Shown here: in pieces, positions 1-16,142 of the stretch
How the letters are laid out: each line of letters begins with the position of its first letter
Numbering within the stretch: position 1 is the first letter of the stretch
Position numbers and translations under genes: made by a program
Virus genome (UHGV): UHGV-0156413
Origin: a virus
Strand: one strand, 5' to 3'
Length of the DNA stretch: 16,142 bases
Notes under the pieces: generated by a model
Told to the model about the DNA's origin: nothing
What the model saw: only the letters and a program-made list of their open reading frames with translations
The model's database searches: none

Positions 1-49
1 TACAATGCGGGTTTGAGCGGCATAAATTACCACTGAAAGCCCTTAAACG

Positions 50-1063
50 TTACTCTACTGTGGACACTGTGTGGACACTCTCGGCCTCAGTACCACCTCT
101 TAGCGGATTAAGAGAAATGGCGTCCTGAAGGTACTCTGGCGCAAAATGAGCGTAAACCATAGTTTGCTCAATCCGCGTGTGACCTAGTATCCGTTGTAGC
201 GTGATAATACTTCCTCCATTAATCATGAAATGAGTGGCAAAGCTGTGCCTTAGTGCATGTGTGGCTTGCCCCATTGGCAAATCCGGTTTTATTGCTTTCA
301 TTGTTCGTCTGAAGCGAGGGTAATCAGCATCAGGGAATAAAAAACCTCGTTTGTTATCCGCGATCATTTTGGCAACAGCCTCTGAGATCGGGACGGTGCG
401 TGGTTTGTTTGTTTTCGTTTTAACAAACGTGACGCGGTTATGGATGATATTTTCTGCTTTCAAACGAGCTGCTTCTCCCCAACGTGCTCCAGTACTCAGG
501 CAAAGAATCGCAATCTTTTTGTTGTCGCCGTCAAGAGCAGCAAGCAGTAAGGCAATTTCTTCCTGCGTGAGATAGCCTGTGTCTGGTTTTTCCTCCTTAA
601 GCCTTTTTGTCCCTCTGATAGGGTGCTCACCAAAGAATAACTCCGCTTCAATCAGGGCTGTAAACATGCCGCTAATACATGTTAAATCACGATTGATACT
701 CGAAGGTTTAATACCCTGACTTCTTCGGGTGGCGCAGTACTGGCTGATAAGCGATTTCGTAATTTGAAATGCGCATGGGTCATTCGTTATTTTTGTGAAG
801 ATTTCAATTTTTCCAAGATTAGATTTCCCATGCTCTTCGTGTTTACCCTTTAAATCCCACCAGATCTGTGTCAGCTCCGACAGACGTCGCTTGTCTGTTG
901 GTTTTGATAGCCATTCTTTATTGTGGTGGTTGTACAACGTGTATTTCTCGAAAGCGACAGCTTCGCTTTTCTTATCAAACTTCCTACGGATGCGTTTTCC
1001 ATTACGTCCAGTAGGGCGGATGTCCACTTCATATCGACCATCATCGAGTTTTTTGATTGCCAT
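50..1063 (-). CDS. int: Tyrosine site-specific integrase (P2 Int-like)
   Basis: 337-aa ORF; C-terminal region HALRHSFATHFMINGG...LGHTRIEQTMVYAH fits the tyrosine-recombinase catalytic signature. Lies downstream of the repressor on the same strand, as in P2. No att core recognised in nt 1-49. Confidence 0.93.
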   Translation of the reverse strand: MAIKKLDDGRYEVDIRPTGRNGKRIRRKFDKKSEAVAFEKYTLYNHHNKEWLSKPTDKRRLSELTQIWWDLKGKHEEHGKSNLGKIEIFTKITNDPCAFQITKSLISQYCATRRSQGIKPSSINRDLTCISGMFTALIEAELFFGEHPIRGTKRLKEEKPDTGYLTQEEIALLLAALDGDNKKIAILCLSTGARWGEAARLKAENIIHNRVTFVKTKTNKPRTVPISEAVAKMIADNKRGFLFPDADYPRFRRTMKAIKPDLPMGQATHALRHSFATHFMINGGSIITLQRILGHTRIEQTMVYAHFAPEYLQDAISLNPLRGGTEAESVHTVSTVE

Positions 1064-1178
1064 CAGAAAACCCTCCGAGTGGTGTGTTTTTTTGCGACTA
1101 CTAATCGCTTTTTTCGTGGTGGCTCAAATTTAGCCACCAATAGTAGGCACTTGTGATGAATATATTCACGATGAATTG

Positions 1179-1478
1179 TTAACCAGTCTTTTGACCGGAG
1201 TGGGGCGACGTTGTTTCGTTTTGCCCAAAGTGTGCGAGAGCGGGCGCAATTTGCCCGGACTCAGGAGCGATCTGATTGGTCATGAACCATAAAGTGTATT
1301 TGGTGAATTGTGGGGTCTGCAGGATGTTCATCATGACATCTGTTGGAGGTGTTGAACGACCACTTTCATAGTAACTCAGCGTGCCATACGGAACCCCTGT
1401 TAAATCAGCAAGTTGTTGTCTGCTCAAATACTCTGATTTTCGCATTAAGACTATCTTCTCGCTTATCGTGTTTGACAT
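1179..1478 (-). CDS. C: Immunity repressor (P2 C-like, helix-turn-helix)
   Basis: 99-aa ORF with N-terminal HTH-like segment (LSRQQLADLTGVPYGTLSYYESG); divergent from cox and upstream of int, the P2 arrangement. Length matches P2 C as I recall it. Confidence 0.88.
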   Translation of the reverse strand: MSNTISEKIVLMRKSEYLSRQQLADLTGVPYGTLSYYESGRSTPPTDVMMNILQTPQFTKYTLWFMTNQIAPESGQIAPALAHFGQNETTSPHSGQKTG

Positions 1479-1592
1479 GGTGTTTAGATCTCAATAGTAT
1501 TTAGTTTAGATGTAGATTGTTTAGTGCTTGGATGTGGGCACTAAAAGGCATTATAAGACATTAAACGCAATTCATGAGGGCTAGAGGACGAC
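1479..1592. promoter_or_regulatory. Lysogeny/lytic switch region between C and cox (expected repressor and early promoters plus operators)
   Basis: 114-bp AT-rich spacer between divergent C and cox; direct repeats GTTTAGATGT (1504-1513) and GTTTAGTGCT (1519-1528) are candidate repressor half-sites. Exact promoters not resolved. Confidence 0.5.
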
Positions 1593-1868
1593 ATGAGCAA
1601 GCAAGTAACACTCATGACTGATGCGATTCCTTATCAGGAGTTCGCAAAACTAATAGGAAAATCGACAGGAGCGGTTCGTCGGATGATCGATAAAGGAAAG
1701 CTGCCTGTAATTGATATGACCGATCCACAATCAGCTTCAGGTCGTGCAGGTGAATATTGGGTATACCTTCCGGCATGGAATAACGGACTAAAACTGGCTT
1801 ATGAAAGCCGCCCTAAAGAGATTCGTGACGGCTGGTTGATGTGGTTAGGTCTCGGTGAACCACGTTAA
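1593..1868 (+). CDS. cox: Cox-like excisionase / early-operon regulator
   Basis: 91-aa ORF, first gene rightward of the switch, opposite to C. Size and position match P2 Cox; start codon preceded by GAGG. Confidence 0.88.
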   Translation: MSKQVTLMTDAIPYQEFAKLIGKSTGAVRRMIDKGKLPVIDMTDPQSASGRAGEYWVYLPAWNNGLKLAYESRPKEIRDGWLMWLGLGEPR

Positions 1869-1878
1869 GGAGAACCGT

Positions 1879-2049
1879 ATGAATGAGCCTCGTTGTATTG
1901 CTCAGTTACTGCGTAACGAAAGCCCCAGGGCGATTGACTTCACCATCACCCACGGTAAGGGGCGTAAGGGAATCATTATCCGCACCAAAAAACAGAGTCC
2001 GTTAAAAAAGGCTCTGACCTTTCTGAAAAGCCGGAGGGTATGGAAATGA
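1879..2049 (+). CDS. Small early-operon hypothetical protein
   Basis: Internal ATG at 1879 preceded by AAGGAG (about 1865-1870); basic 56-aa product; sits between cox and B where P2 has a small ORF. Function unknown. Confidence 0.45.
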   Translation: MNEPRCIAQLLRNESPRAIDFTITHGKGRKGIIIRTKKQSPLKKALTFLKSRRVWK

Positions 2050-2546
2050 CAGTGATGACGCTCAATCTCGTTGAAAAACAGCCAGCAGCTATGCGCCGGA
2101 TAATTGGCAAGCATCTTGCCGTCCCTCGCTGGCAGGATACATGTGATTATTATAATCAGATGATGGAGCGCGAACGGCTAACGGTTTGCTTTCATGCACA
2201 GTTAAAACAGCGTCACGCAACGATGCGTTTTGAAGAAATGAACGACGTCGAACGTGAACGACTGGTTTGTGCAATTGATGAATTGCGTGGCGCATTCTCA
2301 AAACGCCGTCAGGTTGGTGCAAGTGAGTATGCATATATTAGTTTTTTAACAGTCAGTCAGCGTCGCACTTTATTTATGCACGCACGACTGACTGAAAAAG
2401 AATTCAACCAGCCATACTGGCGAATTAATGAAGAATCATGTTACTGGCGTGATGCTTTGTTCCGTGCATTACGTGAATTATTCAGTCTGTTTGAGTATGC
2501 ACCGACAATTCTGACGTCGGTAAAACCAGAGCAATATCTGCATTAA
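2046..2546 (+). CDS. B: Replication protein B (helicase-loader-like, P2 gpB-like)
   Basis: ORF in the P2 B position; start at 2046 (MTVMTLNLVEK...) preferred over 2040 on Shine-Dalgarno spacing (GGAGGG at about 2029-2034). Length close to P2 B as recalled. Confidence 0.85.
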   Translation: MTVMTLNLVEKQPAAMRRIIGKHLAVPRWQDTCDYYNQMMERERLTVCFHAQLKQRHATMRFEEMNDVERERLVCAIDELRGAFSKRRQVGASEYAYISFLTVSQRRTLFMHARLTEKEFNQPYWRINEESCYWRDALFRALRELFSLFEYAPTILTSVKPEQYLH

Positions 2547-2567
2547 ATAATTAACCAGAGTTTTTAA

Positions 2568-2595
2568 CGCACTTAATCGTGCGGGGCTTCTTTTT
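2568..2595 (+). terminator. Weak hairpin plus T-run between B and the next ORF (possible attenuator/terminator)
   Basis: Stem CGCAC (2568-2572) / GTGCG (2579-2583), loop TTAATC, followed by GGGCTTCTTTTT. Short stem, so weak. Confidence 0.25.
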
Positions 2596-2609
2596 GCCTG
2601 GAGAAAGTC

Positions 2610-2834
2610 ATGCATACAGTTTCTGAAAATCAGTGCGGTATATACGCATTACTGCTGCAACAGGCCAGAACCGAAGCACAGGCCGACGCTGCGACGCGCT
2701 TTTCTTCTCATCTTGACGCCATGATTCGCCACATCACAAAGGCGGAGTTATCCCGCGTGGAGATAGTCGAGCTGCTCAGTCAGGAGTCGGAAAAATTTCA
2801 CAATATCGGATTGTCTCGCGGGAAGGTGCTTTGA
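2610..2834 (+). CDS. Hypothetical early protein (P2 orf80 position)
   Basis: 74-aa ORF with GGAGA upstream of ATG; stop overlaps next start (ATGA), suggesting translational coupling. Confidence 0.6.
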
Positions 2835-3136
2835 TGTCCTGTTCTCATTCAGTTGTATTACTGAATAACGCCTTAAAAATCGCCGTTATGAAAAATGGCG
2901 ATTTGTCTCTTATTCAACTTTGTCTTGATAAAGAAAAACGCGACATAACTGAATCTGTTATCGCGATTTATCAGAATGAATTAAACCTCCTGTCTGATGT
3001 GGTCAATTTACTTGTTAAACGCGCTGTATTCCACAAGCAAATTTCATCCGTGGATGAGCTGACAAAATTAACGACAGAAATCGCCAGCTATTGCGCTGAT
3101 GAATTCAAGAAACTGAACGATAAAAGGAGCTGGTAA
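2831..3136 (+). CDS. Hypothetical early protein (P2 orf81 position)
   Basis: 101-aa ORF, start overlapping upstream stop, same strand and operon context. Confidence 0.6.
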
Positions 3137-3360
3137 TGCCGGACAACGTAGATTTTATTCAGGAACAACAGGCTGAATTACTGGAGCGCCAGATTAACGC
3201 GGCAAGGGTAAAACATTGCGGTGTTTCTTCGCTGGTTTGCGAAGAGTGTGATGCGCCAATACCTGCTGCCCGTCGTGCGGCTTATCCGTCAGCCACGCGT
3301 TGTGTTTCCTGTCAGTCAGTCTTTGAAGCAAAAAACAAACATTACCGGAGAACGGCATGA
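3136..3360 (+). CDS. DksA/TraR-type C4 zinc-finger protein (P2 orf82 position)
   Basis: 74-aa ORF with C-x2-C-x17-C-x2-C (CEEC...CVSC), typical of TraR/DksA-family zinc fingers in phage early operons. Confidence 0.7.
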   Translation: MPDNVDFIQEQQAELLERQINAARVKHCGVSSLVCEECDAPIPAARRAAYPSATRCVSCQSVFEAKNKHYRRTA

Positions 3361-3632
3361 GTATTCGTATTGAAATTGGCGAACGTTATGTCGTTACCAG
3401 TGACAGCTTTCAGTTTATTCTCCACGAGAAAAAGAGAGCGGAAAGCGGTAAAAACGCCGGTCAGGAATGGCTGTCGGTGGTTGGTTATTACCCGAAATTA
3501 AGCCAGCTCGTTTCCGGCCTGATGCATCACGATATTCTGACCGGAAGCGCAAAGTCTTTTGCTGATTTAAACGCGCAGGTTGAGCAACTCAGCAAGCGTT
3601 GTTCAGAGGTTTTTGGCTCATATGGCAGTTAA
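3357..3632 (+). CDS. Hypothetical early protein (P2 orf83 position)
   Basis: 91-aa ORF, start overlaps upstream stop; its 3' end overlaps the start of A. Confidence 0.6.
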   Translation: MSIRIEIGERYVVTSDSFQFILHEKKRAESGKNAGQEWLSVVGYYPKLSQLVSGLMHHDILTGSAKSFADLNAQVEQLSKRCSEVFGSYGS

Positions 3633-5898
3633 AGCCTCCGGGCGTTGTGTCCCTCCGTCAGCATTTGCCGCAGGCACCGGTAAGACGTTTACCGGTGCTT
3701 ATGCATGGAACGCGCCACGCGAGGCCGTCGGGCGCGAAAGACCCCTTACACGTGACGAGATGCGTCAGGTGCAAGGTGTTTTATCCACGATTAACCGCCT
3801 GCCTTACTTTTTGCGCTCGCTGTTTACTTCACGCTATGACTACATCCGGCGCAATAAAAGCCCGGTGCACGGGTTTTATTTCCTCACATCCACTTTTCAG
3901 CGTCGTTTATGGCCGCGCATTGAGCGTGTGAATCAGCGCCATGAAATGAACACCGACGCGTCGTTACTGTTTCTGGCAGAGCGTGACCACTATGCGCGCC
4001 TGCCTGGAATGAATGACAAGGAGCTGAAAAAGTTTGCTGCCCGTATCTCATCGCAGCTTTTCATGATGTATGAGGAACTCAGCGATGCCTGGGTGGATGC
4101 GCATGGCGAAAAAGAATCGCTGTTTACGGATGAGGCGCAGGCTCACCTGTATGGTCATGTTGCTGGCGCTGCACGTGCTTTCAATATTTCCCCTCTCTAC
4201 TGGAAAAAATACCGTAAAGGGCAGATGACCACGAGGCAGGCATATTCTGCCATTGCCCGTCTGTTTAACGATGAGTGGTGGACTCATCAGCTTAAAGGCC
4301 AGCGTATGCGCTGGCATGAGGCGTTACTGATTGCTGTCGGGGAGGTCAATAAAGACCGTTCTCCTTATGCCAGTAAACATGCCATTCGTGATGTGCGCGC
4401 GCGCCGCCAGGCAAATCTGGAATTTCTTAAATCGTGTGACCTTGAAAACAGGGAAACCGGCGAACGCATCGACCTTATCAGTAAGGTTATGGGCAGTATT
4501 TCTAATCCAGAAATTCGCCGGATGGAGCTGATGAACACCATTGCCGGTATTGAGCGTTACGCCGCCGCAGAGGGTGATGTGGGGATGTTTATCACGCTGA
4601 CCGCGCCGTCAAAGTATCACCCGACACGTCAGGTCGGAAAAGGCGAAAGTAAAGCCGTCCAGCTAAATCACGGCTGGAACGATGAGGCATTTAATCCAAA
4701 GGATGCGCAGCGTTATCTCTGCCGCATCTGGAGCCTGATGCGCACGGCATTCAAGGATAATGATTTACAGGTCTACGGTTTGCGTGTCGTCGAGCCACAC
4801 CACGACGGAACGCCGCACTGGCATATGATGCTTTTTTGTAATCCACGCCAGCGTAACCAGATTATTGAAATCATGCGTCGCTACGCGCTCAAAGAGGATG
4901 GCGACGAAAGAGGAGCTGCGCGAAACCGTTTTCAGGCAAAACATCTTAACCGGGGCGGTGCTGCGGGATATATCGCGAAATACATTTCAAAAAACATCGA
5001 CGGCTATGCACTGGATGGTCAGCTCGATAACGACACCGGCAGGCCGCTGAAAGACACTGCAGCGGCTGTTACCGCATGGGCGTCAACGTGGCGCATCCCG
5101 CAATTTAAAACGGTTGGCCTGCCGACAATGGGGGCTTACCGTGAACTACGCAAATTGCCTCGCGGCGTCAGCATTGCTGATGAGTTTGACGAACGCGTTG
5201 AGGCTGCACGTGCCGCCGCAGACAGTGGTGATTTTGCGTTGTATATCAGCGCACAGGGTGGGGCAAATGTTCCGCGTGATTGCCAGACTGTCAGAGTCGC
5301 CCGTAGCCCGTCGGATGACGTTAACGAGTACGAGGAAGAAGTCGAGAGAGTGGTCGGCATTTACGCGCCGCATCTCGGCGCGCGTCATATTCATATCACC
5401 AGAACGACGGACTGGCGCATTGTGCCGAAAGTTCCGGTCGTTGAGCCTTTGACTTTAAAAAGCGGCATCGCCGCGCCTCGGAGTCCTGTCAATAACTGTG
5501 GAAAGCTCACCGGTGGTGATACTTCGTTACCGGCTCCCACACCTTCTGAGCACGCCGCAGCAGTGCTTAATCTGGTTGATGACGGTGTTATCGAATGGAA
5601 TGACACGGAGGTCGTGAGGGCGCTCAGGGGGGCATTAAAACACGACCTGAGAACACCAAATCGTCAGCAAAGAAACGGAAGCCCGTTAAAACCACATGAA
5701 ATTGCACCATCGGCCAGACTGACCCGGTCGGAAAGAATGCAAATTACCCGTATCCGCGTTGACCTTGCTCAGAACGGTATCAGGCCGCAGCGATGGGAGC
5801 TTGAGGCGCTGGCGCGTGGCGCGACCGTAAATTATTACGGGAAATCTTTCAATTATCAGGTCGCTGATGAGTGGCCTGGATTTTTGTTACCCATTTGA
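3622..5898 (+). CDS. A: Rolling-circle replication initiator (P2 gpA-like HUH endonuclease)
   Basis: Start taken at ATG 3622 (MAVKASG...) rather than the upstream ORF-track start. Contains HUH-like motif PHWHMMLF and tyrosine motif GYIAKYISKNIDGY typical of Rep/gpA nickases. Confidence 0.9.
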   Translation: MAVKASGRCVPPSAFAAGTGKTFTGAYAWNAPREAVGRERPLTRDEMRQVQGVLSTINRLPYFLRSLFTSRYDYIRRNKSPVHGFYFLTSTFQRRLWPRIERVNQRHEMNTDASLLFLAERDHYARLPGMNDKELKKFAARISSQLFMMYEELSDAWVDAHGEKESLFTDEAQAHLYGHVAGAARAFNISPLYWKKYRKGQMTTRQAYSAIARLFNDEWWTHQLKGQRMRWHEALLIAVGEVNKDRSPYASKHAIRDVRARRQANLEFLKSCDLENRETGERIDLISKVMGSISNPEIRRMELMNTIAGIERYAAAEGDVGMFITLTAPSKYHPTRQVGKGESKAVQLNHGWNDEAFNPKDAQRYLCRIWSLMRTAFKDNDLQVYGLRVVEPHHDGTPHWHMMLFCNPRQRNQIIEIMRRYALKEDGDERGAARNRFQAKHLNRGGAAGYIAKYISKNIDGYALDGQLDNDTGRPLKDTAAAVTAWASTWRIPQFKTVGLPTMGAYRELRKLPRGVSIADEFDERVEAARAAADSGDFALYISAQGGANVPRDCQTVRVARSPSDDVNEYEEEVERVVGIYAPHLGARHIHITRTTDWRIVPKVPVVEPLTLKSGIAAPRSPVNNCGKLTGGDTSLPAPTPSEHAAAVLNLVDDGVIEWNDTEVVRALRGALKHDLRTPNRQQRNGSPLKPHEIAPSARLTRSERMQITRIRVDLAQNGIRPQRWELEALARGATVNYYGKSFNYQVADEWPGFLLPI

Positions 5899-6158
5899 GT
5901 GAAAATGCAGCGTGATTTTATATGCCTTTGAATGGATTATGCGAAGCGCCTCTAAGGCAGATGAGGAGCAATAGCATGCTGAAGTAGAAGGCTAAATTGT
6001 ATTGAATCGCTAGCATGTAATTTAAGGCAGCTATTTGATTCGAGTCATAAAAGAGCATCTATTTCGGCTAATAAAACCATTGCGAGTGACCTTTTGTCGA
6101 AGCATAATTCATCTCGAGCGAAGTCTTGCTAGTCTTTCATCGGAATGATGACAGGCGC

Positions 6159-6188
6159 AAAAAAACCACCCTGGCAGGTGGTTTTTTT
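6159..6188. terminator. Bidirectional rho-independent terminator
   Basis: A7-CCACC (6159-6170), loop CTGGCA, GGTGG-T7 (6177-6188): GC stem flanked by an A-run and a T-run, so a U-tract follows the hairpin in either orientation. Lies downstream of A and just 3' of the minus-strand small ORF. Confidence 0.6.
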
Positions 6189-6200
6189 GTTTGAAGCATA

Positions 6201-6314
6201 CTAAAGAATAATACTTACATGGATATTACTGACGTTTACTGACAAACCACTTGGACTACCATATGGATAGCCAAAGAGGGCCAGAACGAGAATGCAGTAA
6301 TAGCACTTCTTCAT
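6201..6314 (-). CDS. Putative small hydrophobic peptide (37 aa; not in the ORF track)
   Basis: Minus-strand ATG at 6314-6312 preceded by CAGGAGGAGAT; translation MKKCYYCILVLALFGYPYGSPSGLSVNVSNIHVSIIL then stop; terminator immediately 3'. No homology assessed. Confidence 0.3.
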   Translation of the reverse strand: MKKCYYCILVLALFGYPYGSPSGLSVNVSNIHVSIIL

Positions 6315-6884
6315 ATCTCCTCCTGTAAGCAGAGGGCAATTTCCGCCGATATATGCGCTTCTAAGGCGGAGTTAATATTTAGCGAAGTCTTGCCCTGAAA
6401 TAATGCTCTGTTTAAACGCAAAGTGATCTGGCATATCACCGAACAGAGAGCCTGAACAACACAACATATAGTATGTCGTTGTTTCTGGTTGCATTTTATG
6501 TTGTGTAATACTGGTTTTGCATCAAGGATGTTTGAGCTTTTTTTGATATAGCTCAAAGTAAAAAGCAGGGACTACGGATGATAAGGTATTGAAAGCAATG
6601 TAAATTTTTTAAAGTTATTGGTGGCTAAAAAATGCACGATTTCAATGTGGCGGACTTAAATAAGCAATTAAAAAAGTCATAAATATCACTAAAATCATGG
6701 TGTTACGTTTTTTGTGGGAGCTGCGGTGACGCTTAAGTTGATTTGTCATTAAATAAGCCGTGCATGCAACAAGTGAATGTTTTTGCATGCGTCGGGGATG
6801 CCCGTTCCCGCTGCTTGCGGTCAGAGCTGGTGCGGATCCATAGTATCTATGCAACTGCATTAAAACCGCCACATGAAGCGGGCG

Positions 6885-6903
6885 GGCGAGGCGGGGAAAG
6901 CAC
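6885..6903. other. Putative cos site (19-nt cohesive-end sequence of P2-type phages)
   Basis: GGCGAGGCGGGGAAAGCAC at 6885-6903 matches the P2 cohesive-end sequence as I recall it; sits between A and Q as expected for a circularly permuted prophage. Memory-based, not searched. Confidence 0.55.
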
Positions 6904-6939
6904 CGCGCGTAAGATAAACAGAAGAGCGAAGGATTATGG

Positions 6940-6968
6940 TTGAGTATTTGTGTTTTTGTACATATGAT
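6940..6968 (+). promoter_or_regulatory. Candidate sigma70 promoter for the cargo operon
   Basis: TTGAGT (6940-6945), 17-bp spacer, TATGAT (6963-6968); followed by inverted repeat GTGTTT...AAACAC (about 6975-6997) and a GGAG Shine-Dalgarno before ATG 7010. Confidence 0.3.
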
Positions 6969-7009
6969 AAAAAGGTGTTTACGCTTAAAAACACATCAAA
7001 GGAGATGAT

Positions 7010-8311
7010 ATGGAAAATATAAAGATTGATAAGTTTCTCACTATTCAAAAAGTTGATATTCCTCTTAAGAAAGTGAATATATTTATTGGGCCTCAGGCAC
7101 AGGGGAAAAGTGTCATTGCAAAGCTAATAAAATATTTTAAAGATTATCCTATGGATATACTACGAGCTTCAACAGAGGGTAAAACTAAAAGAGATATATT
7201 GAAGGAGCAAAAGAATAAGTTTAGTAAAATTTTCCCTCAGCAGTATTGGGCTGATGATGAGTTTTTTATTGAGTATAGTAATAAGCACTATTGGGTGCGG
7301 ATTACTAATCGAAAAAATAGCAAAGGGTCATTGAAAATAGCCCTTTCTGAGAATTTAACGAAGACGATTGCTAAACTTCGTTTGATTGTACGAAAGGATT
7401 TAGATGAAAATATTGAGAATTCACTTGCAGAAAGCGTTACGAGAAGGCGTAAACGCGGAATTGAACATGAATTGCGAGTATGTCTTTCTCTAGGATTGTT
7501 TTCAGAACCAGAAACAAAGCTTGAAAGTGTTTTTTATATCCCCGCAGGGCGCTCTTTTTTTGCTAATTTGCAAAAAAATGTGTTTTCATTTTTATCCAGT
7601 AGTATAGAAATTGACTACTTTTTGACAGAGTTTGGTTCTCTGTATGAACAAACAAAAAAATTATTTAACCAAGATTACATGATTAGGATGCTTAGGGGGG
7701 CTGTGCCTCAACATGTTAATAAACTTGTGGAGGAGTTGATTTGCGGAAAATATATAACAGAAAAGGGTGAGGATTTTATTCGTCATGCTGCTAAGAAGAC
7801 GAATCTTAACAACTCGAGCTCAGGGCAGCAAGAAGCGTTACCAATGGCTTTAATGTTATCCTCATGGCCGTATTTACAGTCTATGACTAGTAAGAGTTTT
7901 ATTATTGAGGAGCCGGAGGCTCATCTGTTTCCTTCTGCCCAAGCAAAAGTTGTATCTTTAATAGCCTCAGCGTATAACCAAGCAGAAAGCTATTGTAGCT
8001 ATACAATAACAACACATAGTCCATATATTCTAAGTGCCTTCAATAATTTGATTCAAGCAGGTAATGCATTGAAGTGTATTAAGGGCAAGAATAATACCGA
8101 TATCGAACGCTTATATAAGCTTGTTCCAGAGTCTCAAATTATTGATTTTGATGATGTGACAGCTTATATGGTTAATGCTGGGAAAGTGACGGAAATACTG
8201 GATTCCGAACTAAATATATTAGATGCGAATGAAATAGATAGGATTTCCTCTATTTTTTCAGAGACTTTTGATGCATTGATTGATATCGAATATTCGGCTA
8301 CTGTGAATTAG
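7010..8311 (+). CDS. ABC-type ATPase of the AAA_21/OLD-like family (candidate defence ATPase)
   Basis: 433 aa. Walker A GPQAQGKS (aa 27-34), signature-like SSGQQ (aa 269-273), Walker B/D-loop FIIEEPEAHLFP (aa 297-308), H-loop TTHSP (aa 334-338). AT-rich codon usage unlike the phage backbone. Confidence 0.85.
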   Translation: MENIKIDKFLTIQKVDIPLKKVNIFIGPQAQGKSVIAKLIKYFKDYPMDILRASTEGKTKRDILKEQKNKFSKIFPQQYWADDEFFIEYSNKHYWVRITNRKNSKGSLKIALSENLTKTIAKLRLIVRKDLDENIENSLAESVTRRRKRGIEHELRVCLSLGLFSEPETKLESVFYIPAGRSFFANLQKNVFSFLSSSIEIDYFLTEFGSLYEQTKKLFNQDYMIRMLRGAVPQHVNKLVEELICGKYITEKGEDFIRHAAKKTNLNNSSSGQQEALPMALMLSSWPYLQSMTSKSFIIEEPEAHLFPSAQAKVVSLIASAYNQAESYCSYTITTHSPYILSAFNNLIQAGNALKCIKGKNNTDIERLYKLVPESQIIDFDDVTAYMVNAGKVTEILDSELNILDANEIDRISSIFSETFDALIDIEYSATVN

Positions 8312-8319
8312 GTGATTGA

Positions 8320-8757
8320 ATGTGTAAAAATTGCAAAGGAAAAACAAAAAATAAAATCATTGTGCTATCTGATAAAGGAACGTCAACGCAATTGTCAGTC
8401 ACAAATGATAATGAGTTGGAAGTTGAGCATAAGTTAATAGATGGTTGCGCTATTGTTGTTGGAGAGCGGTGTGATCATTATTTGAAGATTTATAACAATC
8501 AGGATGTTTCACATCTTTTTGTTGAACTTAAAGGAAGTGATGTTGAAAAAGCTGTTAAACAGATAGTGACAACTTTAAAGTCAGGTGTGATTAATGTAGG
8601 TGCTAAAGAAAAAAAACATGGTGCTATTGTTAGCACTAGGAATCCGCTAAACTCACCAGAAACCAATAGGTTAAAGAAGAAAATTCTTTTGAGTGACGGA
8701 GTGAATTTGCATTTCTATAAAATGAAGGCGCAGCAAAAAATAACTTCTTTTACATGA
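8320..8757 (+). CDS. Small partner protein, possible PD-(D/E)xK-like nuclease or effector (hypothetical)
   Basis: 145 aa; starts 8 bp after the ATPase stop with AGGTGA upstream. N-terminal CxxC (C2, C5); candidate catalytic core D52 ... E69-L-K71 (ERCDH ... FVELKG). Assignment is tentative. Confidence 0.7.
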   Translation: MCKNCKGKTKNKIIVLSDKGTSTQLSVTNDNELEVEHKLIDGCAIVVGERCDHYLKIYNNQDVSHLFVELKGSDVEKAVKQIVTTLKSGVINVGAKEKKHGAIVSTRNPLNSPETNRLKKKILLSDGVNLHFYKMKAQQKITSFT

Positions 8758-8770
8758 AGTGTTCTCTTGT

Positions 8771-8794
8771 ACAGGCATGCATTTGCATGCCTGT
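8771..8794. terminator. Perfect palindrome between convergent cargo operon and Q (terminator or protein-binding site)
   Basis: ACAGGCATGCA tt TGCATGCCTGT (11-bp arms); a short T-run (ATCTTTTA) follows about 8 nt downstream on the plus strand. Confidence 0.35.
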
Positions 8795-8860
8795 CGTGTA
8801 ATCTTTTACACTATATTTGTGTTGGTTCTAATCTTGTTATGTGTTTGTTTCGGTGATGGG

Positions 8861-9880
8861 TCATAATGAATAAGTTCGAAAGCGAAATACATCTTCGCCA
8901 ACCCAACAGTTAATTTCTTTACATCGCTCTTGGAGGAACGTTAGCTCGTTGCGTACAAAGACTTGTGCTGCTTTTGTTACATCTCCAAATCCTCCTGTGT
9001 TGTTGGGCATCATTCCTATCATTTGGGGAGGCACGCGATGAGCACTCATTAGATCTTCAGCACTTGCTTTTTTGATATTAAAAAAATCGTCCTTCGTTGC
9101 CACTTCACTGAGCGGGATAATTTTAATGCCGTCGGCTTTCCCCTGCGGGGCATAGAGAAACAGATTTTTAAAGTTATTGCGGCCTTTCGACTTAACCATG
9201 TTTTCGCGAAGCATTTCGATATCGTTGCGATCCTGCACGGCATCAGTGACGTACATGATGTATCCGGCATGAGCGCCGTTTTCGTAATACTTGCGGCGGA
9301 ACAGCGTGGCCGACTCATTCAGCCAGGCAGAGTTAAGGGCGCTGAGATATTCGGGCAGGCCGTACAGCTCCTGATTAATATCCGGCTCCAGCAGGTGAAA
9401 CACGGAACCGGGCGCGAAGGCTGTCGGCTCGTTGAAGGACGGCACCCACCAGTAAACATCCTCTTCCACACCACGGCGGGTATATTTTGCCGGTGAGGTT
9501 TCCAGCCTGATAACTTTACCGGTGGTGCTGTAACGCTTTTCCAGAAACGCATTACCGAACACCAGAAAATCCAGCACAAAGCGGCTGAAATCCTGCTGGG
9601 AAAGCCACGGATGCGGGATAAATGTCGAGGCCAGAATATTGCGTTTGACGTAAATCGGCGAGCTGTGATGCACGGCAGCACGCAGGCTTTTTGCCAGACC
9701 GGTAAAGCTGACCGGCGGCTCATACCATCTGCCGTTACTGATGCACTCGACGTAATCCAGAATGTCACGGCGGTCGAGTACCGGCACCGGCTCACCAAAG
9801 GTGAATGCTTCCATTTTCGGGGCGCTGGCGGTGATTGTTTTTGCCGCAGGTCGCGGTGTTTTCCCTTTTTTCTTGCTCAT
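8861..9880 (-). CDS. Q: Portal protein (P2 gpQ-like)
   Basis: 339-aa ORF immediately downstream of and overlapping the large-terminase stop (ATGA); conserved P2 Q-P arrangement; size close to P2 Q as recalled. Confidence 0.9.
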   Translation of the reverse strand: MSKKKGKTPRPAAKTITASAPKMEAFTFGEPVPVLDRRDILDYVECISNGRWYEPPVSFTGLAKSLRAAVHHSSPIYVKRNILASTFIPHPWLSQQDFSRFVLDFLVFGNAFLEKRYSTTGKVIRLETSPAKYTRRGVEEDVYWWVPSFNEPTAFAPGSVFHLLEPDINQELYGLPEYLSALNSAWLNESATLFRRKYYENGAHAGYIMYVTDAVQDRNDIEMLRENMVKSKGRNNFKNLFLYAPQGKADGIKIIPLSEVATKDDFFNIKKASAEDLMSAHRVPPQMIGMMPNNTGGFGDVTKAAQVFVRNELTFLQERCKEINCWVGEDVFRFRTYSL

Positions 9881-11292
9881 CAGTAAAACTCCAGAATGGT
9901 GGATGTCAGCGGAGTGCTGATACCGGCGGTGAGTGGCTCATTTAACAGGGCGTGCATGGTTGCCCAGGCGAGGTCGGCGTGGCTGGCTTCCTCGCTGCGG
10001 CTGGCCTCATAGGTGGCGCTGCGTCCGCTGCTGGTCATGGTCTTGCGGATAGCCATGAACGAGCTGGTGATGTCGGTGGCGCTGACGTCATATTCCAGAC
10101 AGCCACGGCGGATGACGTCTTTGGCCTTGAGCACCATTGCGGTTTTCATTTCCGGCGTGTAGCGGATATCGCGCGCGGCGGGATAGAACGAGCGCACGAG
10201 CTGGAACACGCCGACACCGAGGCCGGTGGCATCAATACCGATGTATTCGACGTTGTATTTTTCGGTGAGTTTGCGGATGGACTCCGCCTGGGTGGCAAAG
10301 TCCATGCCTTTCCACTGGTGACGCTCAAGTATTCTGAATTTGCCACCGGCCACCACCGGCGGTGCCAGCACCACGCATCCGGCGCTGTCGCCACGGTGTG
10401 ACGGGTCGTAACCAATCCATACCGGGCGGGAGCCGAACGGATTTGCGGCAAACGGCGCGTAGTCTTCCCATTCTTCCAGCGTGTCGACCATGCAGCGTTG
10501 CAGCTCCTCGAACGGGAACACCGATGCCTTGTCGTCAACAAATTCACACATGAACAGGTTTTTAAAATCGTCGGCGCTGTTTTCGCGTTTGAGCTGCTCA
10601 ATGTCGAACAATGTGCAGCCGCCTTTCAGGGCGTCCTCAATGGTGACAATCTGCCGCCACTGGCCGTCCGCACAGAGAAGACCACCGGCAAGGGCGTTAT
10701 GACTGACGTCGATTTCCACACGTTCGGCGGCGCTGGCGCGTCCCCGGTTGAACAGTTCACCCGACCAGAACGGGTAGGCGTCGTGCGCCAGTGTGGACGG
10801 GGTGGAGAAATAGGTCGAGCGCAGGTGACTCTGTGAGGCCATACCTGATGCCACCTTACGCAGTACCTGAAAATTCGGGATCCAGAAAATCTCGTCGACG
10901 TACAGGTCGCCGTTATGGCTCTGTGCGGTGTTGGAGTTGGTGCCGAGAAAAATCAGTTTTGCGCCGTTATTGCCCAGGACAATCGGGTCACCGGTCAGGT
11001 CAACGTCAACCAGCCGGGCAAAGGCGATGATGTATTCGCGGAACACATACGCCTGCGTTTTACTGGCCGACAGAAAAATCTGGTTATGACCGGTTTTCAG
11101 GGCGCGCAGCAGCGCCTCGCGGGAAAAATAAAACGTCGCGCCAATCTGGCGGGATTTCAGGATATCGCGGATGCGGTGCTCAAGCCCGGCGCGATACCAG
11201 TGCAACTGATATTCGAAAGACTGCTCAAAGAAAATCTGCTCCAGCTTTTCGATGGCCTCGTCACTGAAAAAATTCTTTTTCGGTTTGCCGCA
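9880..11292 (-). pseudogene. P: Large terminase subunit (P2 gpP-like), 5'-truncated
   Basis: Reading frame open from 11292 down to 9880 (about 470 codons) with no in-frame ATG at its 5' end; the frame runs straight into the opposite-strand O remnant. Contains deviant Walker-A-like KSRQIGAT. P2 P is about 590 aa as recalled. Confidence 0.7.
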
Positions 11293-12017
11293 TTAACCTG
11301 GAACATCTGCGCGGCATCCTGCCTGACGGTATTTTTAAGCGTTATGGCGATGTGGTCGAACTGAAGGCCGAAAAGATTGACGATGATTCGGCGCTGAAAG
11401 GCAAATGGGCGCTGTTTGCGAAAATCACCCCGACCGATGACCTTATCGCGATGAACAAGGCCGCGCAGAAGGTCTATACCTCAATGGAAATTCAGCCGAA
11501 CTTTGCCAATACCGGCAAATGTTATCTGGTGGGTCTGGCCGTCACCGATGACCCGGCAAGCCTCGGCACGGAATACCTGGAATTCTGCCGCACGGCAAAA
11601 CACAACCCCCTGAACCGCTTCAAATTAAGCCCTGAAAACCTGATTTCAGTGGCAACGCCTGTTGAGCTGGAATTTGAAGACCTGCCTGAAACCGTGTTCA
11701 CCGCCCTGACCGAAAAGGTGAAATCCATTTTTGGCCGCAAACAGGCCAGCGATGACGCCCGTCTGAATGACGTGCATGAAGCGGTGACCGCTGTCGCTGA
11801 ACATGTGCAGGAAAAACTGAGCGCCACTGAGCAGCGCCTCGCTGAGATGGAAACTGCCTTTTCCGCTCTTAAGCAGGAGGTGACTGACAGGGCGGATGAA
11901 ACCAGCCAGGCATTCACCCGCCTGAAAAACAGTCTCGACAGCACCGAAAGTCTGACCCAGCAGCGCCGCAGCAAGGCCACCGGTGGTAGCGGTGACGCCC
12001 TGATGACGAACTGCTGA
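11268..12017 (+). pseudogene. O: Capsid scaffold protein (P2 gpO-like), 5'-truncated
   Basis: Frame open from 11268 (just after an in-frame TGA at 11265-11267) with no ATG before GTG 11352; N-terminal residues of the P2 O protein (about 284 aa as recalled) are absent. Confidence 0.7.
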
Positions 12018-12075
12018 CCGGCGTCAGCCAGTCCGGGCAAACCTTCACGATTAACCCTTAATTTCAGGAAAAACT

Positions 12076-13149
12076 ATGCGCCAGGAAACCCGCTTTAAAT
12101 TTAATGCCTACCTGTCCCGTGTTGCCGAACTGAACGGCATCGACGCCGGTGATGTGTCGAAAAAATTCACCGTTGAACCGTCGGTCACCCAGACCCTGAT
12201 GAACACCATGCAGGAGTCCTCTGATTTTCTGACCCGCATCAACATTGTGCCGGTCAGCGAAATGAAAGGGGAAAAAATTGGTATTGGTGTCACCGGCTCC
12301 ATCGCCAGCACCACCGACACCGCCGGTGGCACCGAGCGTCAGCCGAAGGACTTCTCGAAGCTGGCGTCAAACAAGTACGAATGCGACCAGATTAACTTCG
12401 ATTTTTATATCCGCTACAAAACTCTTGACCTGTGGGCGCGTTATCAGGATTTCCAGCTCCGTGTCCGTAACGCCATTATCAAACGCCAGTCCCTTGATTT
12501 AATCATGGCCGGTTTTAACGGCGTGAGGCGTGCCGAAACCTCTGACCGCAGCAGCAATCCGATGCTGCAGGATGTGGCGGTCGGCTGGCTGCAGAAATAC
12601 CGCAATGAAGCACCGGCGCGCGTGATGAGCAAGGTCACTGACGAGGAAGGTCACACGACCTCTGAGGTCATCCGCGTGGGTAAGGGCGGTGATTATGCCA
12701 GCCTTGATGCACTGGTGATGGATGCGACCAACAACCTGATTGAGCCGTGGTATCAGGAAGACCCTGACCTTGTGGTGATTGTGGGGCGTCAGCTACTGGC
12801 GGACAAGTATTTTCCCATCGTCAACAAGGAGCAGGACAACAGCGAAATGCTGGCCGCTGACGTCATCATCAGCCAGAAACGCATCGGCAACCTGCCAGCG
12901 GTACGCGTCCCGTACTTCCCGGCGGATGCGATGCTCATCACGAAGCTGGAAAACCTGTCCATCTACTACATGGATGACAGCCATCGCCGCGTGATTGAGG
13001 AAAACCCGAAACTCGACCGTGTGGAGAACTACGAGTCAATGAACATTGATTACGTGGTGGAGGACTACGCCGCCGGTTGTCTGGTGGAAAAAATTAAGGT
13101 CGGTGATTTCTCCACACCGGCTAAAGCGACCGCAGAGCCGGGAGCGTAA
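12076..13149 (+). CDS. N: Major capsid protein (P2 gpN-like)
   Basis: 357-aa ORF in the conserved O-N-M-L order; length equals P2 N as recalled; AGGA Shine-Dalgarno upstream. Confidence 0.93.
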   Translation: MRQETRFKFNAYLSRVAELNGIDAGDVSKKFTVEPSVTQTLMNTMQESSDFLTRINIVPVSEMKGEKIGIGVTGSIASTTDTAGGTERQPKDFSKLASNKYECDQINFDFYIRYKTLDLWARYQDFQLRVRNAIIKRQSLDLIMAGFNGVRRAETSDRSSNPMLQDVAVGWLQKYRNEAPARVMSKVTDEEGHTTSEVIRVGKGGDYASLDALVMDATNNLIEPWYQEDPDLVVIVGRQLLADKYFPIVNKEQDNSEMLAADVIISQKRIGNLPAVRVPYFPADAMLITKLENLSIYYMDDSHRRVIEENPKLDRVENYESMNIDYVVEDYAAGCLVEKIKVGDFSTPAKATAEPGA

Positions 13150-13152
13150 CCG

Positions 13153-13896
13153 ATGACGAGTCCCGCACAGCGCCACATGATGCGGGTCTCGGCAGCGATG
13201 ACCGCTCAGCGGGACGCCGCCCCGCTGCGACATGCAACTGTCTATGAGCAGATGCTGGTTAAGCTGGCCGCAGACCAGCGCACACTGAAAGCGATTTATT
13301 CAAAAGAGCTGAAGGCCGCAAAAAAACGCGAACTGCTGCCGTTCTGGTTGCCGTGGGTGAACGGCGTGCTGGAGCAGGGCAAAGGTGCACAGGATGACAT
13401 TCTGATGACGGTCATGCTGTGGCGTCTGGATACCGGCGATATTGCCGGTGCGCTGGAGATTGCCCGTTATGCCCTGAAGTACGGTCTGACCATGCCGGGT
13501 AAACACCGCCGTACCCCGCCGTACATGTTCACCGAGGAGGTAGCGCTTGCGGCCATGCGCGCTCACGCTGCCGGTGAGTCTGTGGATACCCGCCTGCTGA
13601 CGGACACCCTTGAACTGACCGCCACGGCTGACATGCCTGATGAAGTGCGCGCAAAGCTGCACAAAATCACCGGTCTGTTTCTGCGTGACGCCGGTGATGC
13701 CGCCGGTGCGCTGGCGCACCTGCAACGTGCGACACAGCTCGACTGTCAGGCAGGCGTCAAAAAAGAGATTGAACGACTGGAGCGGGAGCTGAAACCGAAG
13801 CCGGAGCCGCAGCCCAAAGCGGCCACCCGCGCCCCGCGTAAGACACGGAGCGTGACACCGGCAAAACGTGGACGCCCGAAAAAGAAAGCCAGTTAA
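13153..13896 (+). CDS. M: Small terminase / endonuclease subunit (P2 gpM-like)
   Basis: 247-aa ORF starting 4 bp after N; basic proline/lysine-rich C-terminal tail; position and size match P2 M. Confidence 0.88.
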   Translation: MTSPAQRHMMRVSAAMTAQRDAAPLRHATVYEQMLVKLAADQRTLKAIYSKELKAAKKRELLPFWLPWVNGVLEQGKGAQDDILMTVMLWRLDTGDIAGALEIARYALKYGLTMPGKHRRTPPYMFTEEVALAAMRAHAAGESVDTRLLTDTLELTATADMPDEVRAKLHKITGLFLRDAGDAAGALAHLQRATQLDCQAGVKKEIERLERELKPKPEPQPKAATRAPRKTRSVTPAKRGRPKKKAS

Positions 13897-13995
13897 CAAC
13901 CGAATGCGCCCCGCGCCAGGGCGGCACGCCGGTCAGTGAGGGTGAATCACCTGACACTGCACCGGCGTCCACCGCCCGACTTTTCAGAGGTAGTC

Positions 13996-14505
13996 ATGAT
14001 GACGCTGATTATTCCGCGAAAGGAGGCTCCCGTGTCCGGTGAGGGTACGGTGGTCATCCCGCAACCGGCAGGCGACGAGCCGGTGATTAAAAACACGTTC
14101 TTTTTTCCCGATATCGACCCGAAGCGCGTCCGGGAACGTATGCGCCTTGAGCAGACCGTCGCCCCCGCCCGTCTGCGTGAGGCCATCAAGTCAGGCATGG
14201 CGGAGACGAATGCGGAGCTGTACGAGTACCGCGAACAGAAAATTGCTGCCGGTTTTACGCGTCTGGCGGACGTCCCGGCGGACGACATCGACGGTGAAAG
14301 CATCAAAGTTTTTTACTACGAGCGCGCCGTGTGTGCGATGGCGACCGCATCGCTTTATGAGCGTTATCGCGGCGTGGATGCCAGTGCCAAGGGCGACAAG
14401 AAGGCCGACAGCATTGACAGCACCATTGATGAACTGTGGCGGGATATGCGCTGGGCGGTGGCACGTATCCAGGACAAGCCGCGCTGCATCGTGAGTCAAA
14501 TCTGA
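13996..14505 (+). CDS. L: Head completion/stabilisation protein (P2 gpL-like)
   Basis: Start taken at ATG 13996 (MMTLIIPRKEAP...) with GAGG upstream rather than the longer ORF-track start; 169 aa; about 99 bp gap after M as in P2. Confidence 0.88.
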   Translation: MMTLIIPRKEAPVSGEGTVVIPQPAGDEPVIKNTFFFPDIDPKRVRERMRLEQTVAPARLREAIKSGMAETNAELYEYREQKIAAGFTRLADVPADDIDGESIKVFYYERAVCAMATASLYERYRGVDASAKGDKKADSIDSTIDELWRDMRWAVARIQDKPRCIVSQI

Positions 14506-14708
14506 TGAAGACCTTTGCGCTACAGGGCGACACGCTCGACGCCATTTGTGTCCGGTATTACGGGCGCACTGAGGGCGTGGTTGAGACCGTGCTCGCCGCA
14601 AATCCGGGACTGGCTGAACTGGGTGCGATGCTGCCGCACGGCACCGCCGTCGAACTGCCCGATGTTCAGACCGCGCCCGTGGCTGAAACTGTCAATCTGT
14701 GGGAGTAA
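14505..14708 (+). CDS. X: Tail protein X (P2 gpX-like)
   Basis: 67-aa product from ATG 14505 (MKTFALQGDTLDAICVRYYG...), start overlapping the L stop; size matches P2 X. Confidence 0.8.
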   Translation: MKTFALQGDTLDAICVRYYGRTEGVVETVLAANPGLAELGAMLPHGTAVELPDVQTAPVAETVNLWE

Positions 14709-14711
14709 CGC

Positions 14712-15026
14712 ATGACAGCAGAAGAAAAAAGCGTTCTGTCGCTTTTCATGATTGGAGTGCTGATTGTTGTCGGCAAGGTGCTTGCCGGTGGTGAAACCAT
14801 CACCCCGCGTCTGTTTATCGGGCGCATGTTGCTCGGTGGTTTTGTCTCGATGGTTGCCGGTGTTGTTCTGGTGCAGTTTCCTGACCTGTCACTGCCTGCG
14901 GTGTGCGGCATCGGCTCCATGCTGGGTACCACTGAGCGCAGTTTTGACGGGCGAATGACGGTCACGTTAACCGGCCAGCACAACGACACCGGCCAGCCAC
15001 TTTCGTTAACCATCCCTGTGAGTTGA
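14712..15026 (+). pseudogene. Y: Holin-like ORF (P2 gpY-like N-terminus) with an unrelated hydrophilic C-terminus; probable deletion fusion
   Basis: First about 72 aa contain two clear hydrophobic transmembrane-like segments; after ...GIGSMLG the sequence becomes hydrophilic and the ORF ends 5 bp before J. Confidence 0.55.
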
Positions 15027-15030
15027 AACC

Positions 15031-15939
15031 ATGCCGATTATCGACCTGAACCAGCTACCCGCACCGGATGTGGTCGAGGAGCTGGACTTTGAAAGCATTC
15101 TCGCTGAACGCAAGGCGACACTGATTTCCCTTTACCCGGAAGATCAGCAGGAGGCGGTCGCCCGTACCCTGACACTGGAATCTGAGCCTCTCGTCAAACT
15201 GCTGGAAGAAAATGCTTATCGTGAGCTTATCTGGCGTCAGCGTGTGAATGAGGCCGCACGGGCGGTGATGCTGGCCTGTGCCGCCGGTAATGACCTTGAT
15301 GTGATTGGTGCCAATTACAACACCACGCGCCTGACTATCACCCCGGCAGATGATTCGACCATTCCGCCGACACCGGCAGTGATGGAATCTGACACCGATT
15401 ATCGTCTGCGTATTCAGCAGGCTTTTGAGGGCTTAAGCGTCGCCGGGTCAGTGGGAGCCTATCAGTATCATGGTCGCAGTGCTGACGGGCGTGTCGCGGA
15501 TATTTCTGTCACCAGTCCGTCTCCTGCCTGTGTCACCATCTCTGTGCTGTCACGTGAAAATAACGGTGTGGCATCCGAAGACCTGCTGGCTGTGGTGCGT
15601 AACGCCCTTAATGGCGAGGACGTCAGGCCGGTGGCTGACCGTGTGACCGTGCAGTCTGCCGCCATTGTTGAATACCAGATAAACGCCACGCTGTATCTTT
15701 ACCCTGGTCCCGAAAGCGAACCCATCCGCGCTGCCGCTGTGAAAAAGCTGGAAGCGTATATCACGGCACAGCACCGGCTGGGGCGCGACATCCGTCTGTC
15801 TGCCATTTATGCCGCTTTGCATGTGGAAGGTGTGCAGCGTGTCGAACTGGCTGCACCACTGGCCGACATCGTGCTCAACAGTACGCAGGCGTCTTTCTGT
15901 ACCGAATACCGCGTCGTGACCGGAGGCTCGGATGAGTGA
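15031..15939 (+). CDS. J: Baseplate assembly protein J (P2 gpJ-like)
   Basis: 302-aa ORF, length as recalled for P2 J; followed by an overlapping start for the next tail gene. Confidence 0.85.
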   Translation: MPIIDLNQLPAPDVVEELDFESILAERKATLISLYPEDQQEAVARTLTLESEPLVKLLEENAYRELIWRQRVNEAARAVMLACAAGNDLDVIGANYNTTRLTITPADDSTIPPTPAVMESDTDYRLRIQQAFEGLSVAGSVGAYQYHGRSADGRVADISVTSPSPACVTISVLSRENNGVASEDLLAVVRNALNGEDVRPVADRVTVQSAAIVEYQINATLYLYPGPESEPIRAAAVKKLEAYITAQHRLGRDIRLSAIYAALHVEGVQRVELAAPLADIVLNSTQASFCTEYRVVTGGSDE

Positions 15940-16142
15940 TTCGCGACTGCTGCCGACCGGCTCATCACCGCTTGAGGTCGCCGCCGCAAAAGCCTGTGCG
16001 GAAATTGAAAAAACGCCGGTCAGTATTCGTGAGCTGTGGAACCCGGACACCTGTCCGGCAAATCTGCTGCCGTGGCTGGCGTGGGCGTTTTCGGTCGACA
16101 GGTGGGATGAAAAGTGGCCGGAAGCGACAAAACGCGCCGTTA
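15932..16142 (+). CDS. I: Baseplate/tail protein I (P2 gpI-like), 5' part only (runs off the window)
   Basis: ATG at 15932 overlaps the J stop; open frame to the window end (MSDSRLLPTGSSPLEVAAAKACAEIEK...). Confidence 0.75.
   Translation, partial: MSDSRLLPTGSSPLEVAAAKACAEIEKTPVSIRELWNPDTCPANLLPWLAWAFSVDRWDEKWPEATKRAV

Follow-up and report, generated by a model that had tools for sequence, protein, structure and literature searches.

A probable recent deletion derivative of a P2-like temperate phage at the Escherichia coli yegR site

P2-like phages carry a defence hotspot close to cos (PMC9122126), and defective P2 elements with near-identical defence genes have already been published (PMC13586616, Nucleic Acids Res 2026). 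The general phenomenon of a defective P2 prophage that keeps its defence genes is already known. The stretch analyzed here, the virus genome UHGV-0156413, is 16,142 nt in length and is designated the window throughout. It covers a prophage integrated at the yegR attachment site of Escherichia coli and is read inward from the attL side. By its gene content the element is P2-like (Peduovirus), and it carries a pair of genes, designated cargo A and cargo B, in the hotspot next to cos. The published cases were incomplete elements in 'uncharacteristic genomic regions', whereas the window holds a single and apparently very young case in which most of the phage is present. We consider it likely that the element is a very recent deletion derivative, formed in place, of a circulating P2-like temperate phage at this site.

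With P2 and the Peduovirus prophages of the yegR site, the window prophage has the gene order, the 19-nt cos and the att core in common. The intact yegR-site prophages L011 (GCA_043776995.1) and L013/L033 (GCA_964037355.1) hold 663 bp at P/O and approximately 3.4-4.3 kb between Y and W that the window has lost. The K-12 remnant PR-X (L030, 2167183-2167811, yegR-trhP site) shares the attachment site and the phage family, but the opposite end was kept. Only ogrK and the yegZ fragment of D are left, and int, C, the replication genes and the hotspot cargo are gone. PR-X is widespread: 358 of the 5,426 complete E. coli genomes contain its remnant junction (811 contain a yegR-int junction), whereas the window allele is a singleton. 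The prophage of strain E24377A, which lies at pflA-pflB, carries the same A-cos-cargo module in a defective prophage. Its cargo DNA is 99.7% identical, with two differences in cargo A and one, at T113, in cargo B, and its late genes are also defective. In contrast to the window, it has its own integrase, immunity module and attachment site; a single large deletion reaches from Q' to the tail-assembly gene, and T is interrupted by an IS21. Only cos is shared with P4-like satellites, whereas the window has the structural genes N, M, L, X, Q and J. None of the P4-type helper genes (sid, psu, delta, epsilon, alpha primase) was present among the called genes of the window, all of which were standard P2 genes plus the cargo pair; judged by these genes, the element is not a P4-like satellite.

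The window constitutes the terminal 16,142 nt of the gut-type ENA metagenome contig ERZ773458 NODE_144 (78,402 nt, coverage approximately 13.9), which terminates at 78402/78402 inside tail gene I. In the source contig, the attL core (AAAAAATAAGCCCGTGTAAGGGAGATT) precedes window position 1 by 31-57 nt and adjoins yegR and yegS. The prophage was assigned to the yegR site because the att core and yegR/yegS are directly upstream in this contig. The core occupies 1625-1651 in L029 (window position = L029 position - 1681), and L011 is arranged alike. Positions 1-49 belong to the left end of the prophage, between the attL core and the stop codon of int. The prophage is seen from the attL side only, as H to ogr and attR lie past the contig end. 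Its gene order, int-C-cox-B-A-cos-[hotspot]-Q-P/O-N-M-L-X-Y...J-I, is that of P2, with homologous core genes that each match a Pfam family. The window is approximately 97% identical in nucleotide sequence to Peduovirus (P2-like) phage records and matches P2-like prophages in 2,303 of the 5,426 complete genomes; P2-like elements occupy up to five places per E. coli genome. The window has no tRNA, and a scan of its whole length returned no Rfam family at the gathering score.

Alignment by BLAST with the intact prophage of E. coli strain IrN (L001) was collinear at 97-98.6% identity, and two segments of the reference were absent from the window. The same comparison returned no copy of the missing late segments elsewhere in the window. 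Rearrangement of these segments had been raised as the alternative to their loss, and within the window the loss stands. The prophage is defective: three genes (P, O and Y) are truncated, little of W is left, and K, lysA, lysB, lysC, R, S and V are absent. The gene content and disruptions, as read from the collinear alignment and the breakpoints, were as described in the initial annotation of a defective P2-like prophage. The disruption of packaging and lysis that it reported was correct, and the losses also extend to the N-terminus of O and to R, S, V and W.

Deletion 1 spans 663 bp (L011 17668-18330) and took away codons 1-121 of P and codons 1-42 of O together with all of the intergenic region between these divergent genes. 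Its junction lies at 11285-11288 and consists of a 4-nt microhomology (TTGC). On the left of the junction, the terminase ATPase gene P' (9880-11288, minus strand) is without codons 1-121, its start codon and its promoter region. Intact P encodes 590 aa with Terminase_5, Terminase_6N and Terminase_6C domains; P' keeps Terminase_6N and Terminase_6C, and the Terminase_5/helix-turn-helix N-terminal domain is gone (Pfam). On the right, the scaffold/protease gene O' (11289-12017, plus strand) has likewise lost its promoter region and start codon, along with codons 1-42. A GTG at 11352 is the first start left in frame, and the Phage_GPO match of O' begins at position 61 of 268 of the profile; intact O encodes 284 aa. 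Junction 1 was found in 0 of the 5,426 complete genomes, and its nine full-length matches were each two pieces spanning approximately 950-973 bp, i.e., the intact arrangement. The late-promoter region upstream of N, M, L and X presumably lay within the deleted span, as placed from knowledge of P2. No exact copy of the Ogr-type late-promoter dyad TGT-N12-ACA was found in the deleted intergenic region (L011 18032-18204), so that the predicted loss of the late promoters of the P/O region with deletion 1 is drawn by analogy with P2.

Deletion 2 created an in-frame Y'-'W fusion of 104 aa (14712-15026, plus strand) that consists of codons 1-72 of the holin gene Y and the last 32 codons of the baseplate gene W. 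The junction lies at 14928, with a 1-nt overlap, and joins nucleotide 217 of Y to nucleotide 250 of W. The Pfam holin match covers positions 1-73 of the fusion only. The deletion removed K, lysA, lysB, lysC, R, S, V and most of W. In P2, K is the endolysin, LysB and LysC are the spanins, R and S are required for tail completion, and V is the spike. The size of the deletion was 4,257 bp when measured against references with an extra gene between S and V (L001 and L019), and 3,383 bp against references without it (L023 and L027). The true loss was probably approximately 3.4 kb, since the closest relatives, L033 and L037, are without the S-V gene. Junction 2 was likewise absent from all 5,426 complete genomes, and this contig is the sole record of the fusion protein.

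Apart from the two deletions, the window is nearly indistinguishable from intact prophages. It is 99.95-99.99% identical to its closest relatives, L011, L012, L013, L033 and L037, with one mismatch to L011 in 11,288 nt and two in 3,644 nt, or two to three point changes in 14.9 kb relative to intact relatives. Measured against all close relatives, the window has only two private substitutions: one in M (13542), which is synonymous, and T113P in cargo B (8656). Several E. coli isolates carry, at this site, prophages with an identical A protein and the same cargo. Over 1.7 kb, the host flank matches those of L010 and L012 at 100% identity, consistent with deletions that arose in place. A near-identical prophage (99.97%) also occurs in hosts whose flank is only 97.1% identical (L013 and L015); therefore the lineage was recently mobile, i.e., a live phage lineage. 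The substitution rate of E. coli is commonly quoted as a few 1e-7 per site per year, and at this rate two changes in 14.9 kb amount roughly to a few centuries at most. Each deletion allele is known from this contig only, and the 5,426 complete genomes gave no case of either junction being shared by a diverged host lineage. The initial annotation had called the prophage decaying, and no decay besides the two deletions was seen.

These results are what would be expected if two illegitimate-recombination events, with junction overlaps of 4 nt and 1 nt, had struck an integrated phage very recently. The first would have removed the divergent P/O control region together with the 5' ends of P and O, and the second the segment from mid-Y to near the end of W, with the lysis cassette, the tail completion genes, the spike and most of W. 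On its own, the element would have no terminase, scaffold, baseplate or lysis and would be dead as a phage. Hardly any time would have elapsed since then, with int, C, cox, the early operon, A with its origin, cos and the cargo untouched. C would be expected to still repress the early promoter and to make the lysogen immune to phages that share its immunity type. The cargo might be expressed from the lysogen as a defence system with an ATPase sensor and a nuclease effector, if T113P is tolerated. The deletions may have been neutral or mildly favourable to the host, the killing functions being gone. A related helper phage could also complement and package the element, given that int, cox, A, B and cos are intact. 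Retention of the cargo is expected without selection, because only the two deleted blocks were lost and two to three point changes separate 14.9 kb of the window from intact relatives. The locus offers one more example of how fast temperate phages are disabled by deletion in their hosts, and on its own it is of minor importance. It also gives a caution that intact cargo beside broken phage genes does not equate to selection when an element lies only a few mutations from an intact phage.

Several points weigh against a recent, neutral deletion in place. The sequence comes from a short-read-style metagenome assembly at approximately 14x; the junctions rest on this assembly, and the sample could also contain an intact allele. 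For a branch with two point changes, two deletions are much for pure neutrality; they might point to selection acting on the late functions to remove them, or to a single complex repair. The segment from H to ogr, with attR, is past the contig end, where further damage or cargo may exist. Lastly, expression of C and of the cargo is a prediction from the genes.

The initial annotation proposed that the cargo is maintained because it benefits the host. In such a domesticated remnant, purifying selection would have protected the early arm and the cargo, cargo and immunity both being of benefit to the host, and the structural genes would have been lost. Comparison of the same site across strains gave a mixed picture, of which one part favours this proposal. 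L010/L031, in which Q is joined to H, and L014/L036, in which P' is joined to I, represent independent late deletions that kept int to A and the cargo, and the E24377A prophage kept the cargo after an independent late deletion of its own. L006, a yegR-site remnant in a more degraded state, retains int, C and one hotspot gene, and the published defective P2 elements with near-identical defence genes (PMC13586616) point in the same direction. However, all of these comparison loci had been retrieved with int, A or the cargo as the query, such that retention of the queried gene was guaranteed. The late region is also an approximately fourfold larger deletion target than the early arm (5.9 kb for int-A versus roughly 24 kb for Q-ogr, an estimate from a P2-size genome), and for this reason four late-only deletions are unremarkable (about 0.8^4 = 0.4). 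PR-X, widespread at this very site, lost the cargo and kept only ogr and the D fragment, and cargo B is frameshifted in prophages that are otherwise intact. With two private substitutions in 14.9 kb, the window itself shows no sign that some of its genes decay faster than others; one of these substitutions is the T113P change in cargo B, and the deletion alleles are singletons. The claim that host benefit maintains the cargo is not supported by these observations, and we regard domestication as unlikely. A comparison of the ratio of nonsynonymous to synonymous substitutions (dN/dS) between the cargo and the structural genes was abandoned, as two private substitutions gave no power.

It is still less probable that the arrangement is an artefact of assembly or sampling, either a mis-joined contig or a minority variant among mostly intact prophages. 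The allele was recovered from one sample only, as a single metagenome contig (NODE_144, coverage 13.9), and a contig break inside I would be expected if other P2-like sequences tangle the assembly graph. However, junction overlaps of 4 nt and 1 nt are far shorter than any assembler k-mer, which makes repeat-mediated mis-joins implausible. Both sides of junction 1 belong to the same lineage (99.95% to L011), and comparable natural deletions are present in isolate genomes.

The recurrence of late deletions (the window, the L010 type, the L014 type and E24377A) also allows a bolder reading, to which we give little credence. Hosts would repeatedly disarm the phage and, by selection, keep a cos-bearing carrier of the defence pair that is excisable, replication-competent and movable by a helper. 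If this were true, recurrent disarming would leave a cargo carrier that P2 helper phages could still move.

The least probable proposal is a helper-dependent mobilisable element that is excised, replicated and packaged through co-infection with a heteroimmune P2-like phage and so spreads its cargo like a satellite: P2 late-gene defects can be complemented in trans, cos, int, cox, B and A are intact in a genome approximately 4-5 kb shorter, and E. coli genomes often hold several P2-like elements, in up to five places, but the window has no equivalent of the helper-manipulating genes sid, psu, delta and epsilon of P4, attR and ogr lie past the contig end, the allele was found once with no sign of spread, and any defective P2 that keeps cos would share the property with no special adaptation.

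The cargo pair, a rare candidate defence system, is the only part of the locus that is perhaps worth experiments. The pair sits between cos and Q, i.e., in the cos-proximal defence hotspot of P2. Cargo A (7010-8311, plus strand) is full length and encodes an ABC-type ATPase of 433 aa with Pfam matches to AAA_15 (4e-20) and AAA_21 (7e-9). Walker A (GPQAQGKS), signature (SSGQQ) and Walker B (FIIEEPE) motifs were read by eye from the translation, and the protein is identical to the copies in intact relatives. Among PADLOC profiles, PDC-M29A gave the best match (2.3e-31), with its best stretch confined to the C-terminal third, followed by a partial match to AriA (3e-25).

Cargo B (8320-8757, plus strand) encodes 145 aa and had no match in Pfam (E <= 0.01), PHROG or NCBIfam; its match to the PADLOC profile PDC-M29B was weak (2.4e-4). 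Eighteen relatives were detectable, mostly enterobacterial, and in an alignment of 14 of these with the window protein D52 and E69-L-K71 were invariant. Cargo B probably has a PD-(D/E)xK-like fold and motif, as modelled, and is a putative nuclease. The private T113P change, from A to C at window position 8656, is a non-conservative missense substitution in a conserved segment (RNPLNSTET). Every other copy of cargo B examined has T at residue 113; of 14 wider homologues, 11 have T and one has S at this residue, and P occurs in none. The T113P allele was found in one contig only. In an AlphaFold2 model of cargo B, residue 113 is the first position of the helix 113-126, and proline is often tolerated at the first position of a helix. 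T113P was considered as an inactivating change; given this predicted position, it may instead be tolerated. In L015/L038 and L034, prophages that are otherwise intact, loss of one nucleotide from an A8 run equivalent to window positions of approximately 8610-8620 shortens cargo B to 109 aa; either the putative nuclease is truly inactivated there, or the homopolymer was misread in sequencing.

The pair is rare, being present in 10 of the 5,426 complete genomes. Intact as well as defective prophages carry it; those without annotated disruption over the stretch compared include the prophages of strains 2452 and IrN. Its most likely function, by analogy with PARIS, Septu and OLD-type systems, would be that of an ATPase sensor controlling a small nuclease effector. 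What the ABC-ATPase and nuclease pairs (PARIS, Septu, OLD/Gabija and PDC-M29) share with the cargo is an ATPase with a putative nuclease directly downstream. The AriA protein of PARIS is an AAA_15/AAA_21 ATPase, as is cargo A, but the partial AriA match is weaker than that to PDC-M29A, and the DUF4435/TOPRIM effector AriB was not detected in cargo B (Pfam E <= 0.01). Because no DUF4435/TOPRIM partner was detected, the pair is not classed as a member of PARIS on these profile matches. Likewise, neither the HNH domain of Septu (PtuA/PtuB) nor the fused TOPRIM domain of OLD/Gabija (OLD/GajA) was detected in cargo B. PDC-M29, an experimentally untested PADLOC candidate, is the sole system with matches to both cargo genes, that to cargo B being the weak one. 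A literature search for PDC-M29 found no paper, and the 2026 Nucleic Acids Research paper (PMC13586616) is without mention of PDC, AAA_15 or E24377A.

The genes for integration, immunity and replication are all full length. The integrase gene int (50-1063, minus strand) encodes 337 aa with Int_N and Phage_integrase domains (Pfam). The exact protein is present in 21,233 blocks of the sequence collection, with yegR as the neighbour in all six places displayed. The immunity repressor gene C (1179-1478, minus strand) encodes 99 aa with an HTH_3 domain (Pfam), and the C region has zero differences to the intact relatives L011, L012 and L013. Superinfection immunity to related phages, which the initial annotation had suggested, is a reasonable expectation from P2 biology. 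Cox (1593-1868, plus strand) is a 91-aa protein that matches Phage_Cox at 5.5e-48 over profile positions 1-87 of 87. The early operon that follows on the plus strand (1879-3632) comprises six genes identified from gene calls and Pfam matches on the source contig: an orf78-like gene (1879-2049), B (2046-2546, 166 aa), a DUF2732 gene (2610-2834), a first DUF5405 gene (2834-3136), a TraR/DksA zinc finger gene (3136-3360) and a second DUF5405 gene (3357-3632). The lengths of these genes equal those in L001 and L011. The replication endonuclease gene A (3622-5898, plus strand) encodes 758 aa with a Phage_GPA match (6.9e-124), and the exact protein is present in isolates whose prophages look intact across the stretch displayed. 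The initial annotation considered int, the repressor, cox, B, A and the cargo intact, which held for the length of every one of them; cargo B carries the private T113P.

The core of the immunity region (1309-1614), which covers the N-terminus of C, the operator/promoter and the start of cox, has no near match in phage 720R8, L039 or L040, where the flanks of this core are 97-98% identical. This core looks like a swapped immunity module in the alignments.

Downstream of A lies the gene-poor right-end region of the phage genome (5899-6884), and comparison of the window with L001 gave a differing right-end segment at 5884-6732. The region was present at >=80% coverage in 149 complete E. coli genomes, where the annotation beneath it was the end of gene A only, save for one row with a DUF5405 gene. 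A strong hairpin at approximately 6157-6191 resembles a bidirectional terminator. An Rfam scan of 5850-7050 returned nothing at the gathering score, and sub-threshold matches of the hairpin to RNAI and a Phe leader were taken as chance. A hydrophobic open reading frame (ORF) of 37 aa (MKKCYYCILVLALFGYPYGSPSGLSVNVSNIHVSIIL) with an AGGAGG ribosome-binding site was called on the source contig at 6201-6314 on the minus strand. Neither this ORF nor the A-cos interval had a match in Rfam, Pfam, PHROG or PADLOC; the ORF could encode a small membrane peptide, a toxin, or nothing. L032, a relative located at the pflA site, carries an IS21-family element within this terminator region, at the equivalent of window positions 6190-6194, and the alignment has a 5-nt overlap consistent with target duplication. 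IS21 insertions also break late genes, namely T in E24377A and the tail-fibre assembly gene in EP91A.

The cos site is known to sit in the A-Q interval (PMC9122126). In the window, an intact 19-nt cohesive end (GGCGAGGCGGGGAAAGCAC) was located at 6885-6903 on the plus strand. It was the single exact match, with 0 expected by chance, to what we take to be the P2 cos sequence. Approximately 150 bp flanking it match the termini of many Peduovirus genome records, and by these matches the site between A and Q is a P2-type cos.

The remaining late genes are complete up to the contig end. The portal gene Q (8861-9880, minus strand) encodes 339 aa, as in L001 and L011, with a Phage_portal match in Pfam. 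On the plus strand, the genes for the major capsid protein N (12076-13149, 357 aa), the terminase small/endonuclease subunit M (13153-13896, 247 aa), L (13996-14505, 169 aa) and X (14505-14708, 67 aa) are all full length; M carries the one private synonymous substitution, at 13542. Beyond the Y'-'W fusion, the baseplate gene J (15031-15939, plus strand) is full length at 302 aa, and its exact protein is common in prophages that are intact across the stretch displayed. Tail gene I is represented by its 5' part (15932-16142, plus strand), cut by the contig end and not by a deletion. The contig ends before the second variable locus of P2, G-FI, which lies between the tail-fibre assembly gene and the sheath gene. 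In L010/L031 and L014/L036, a gene for a Ser/Thr protein kinase of 432 aa lies at this locus, between G and FI and on the opposite strand.

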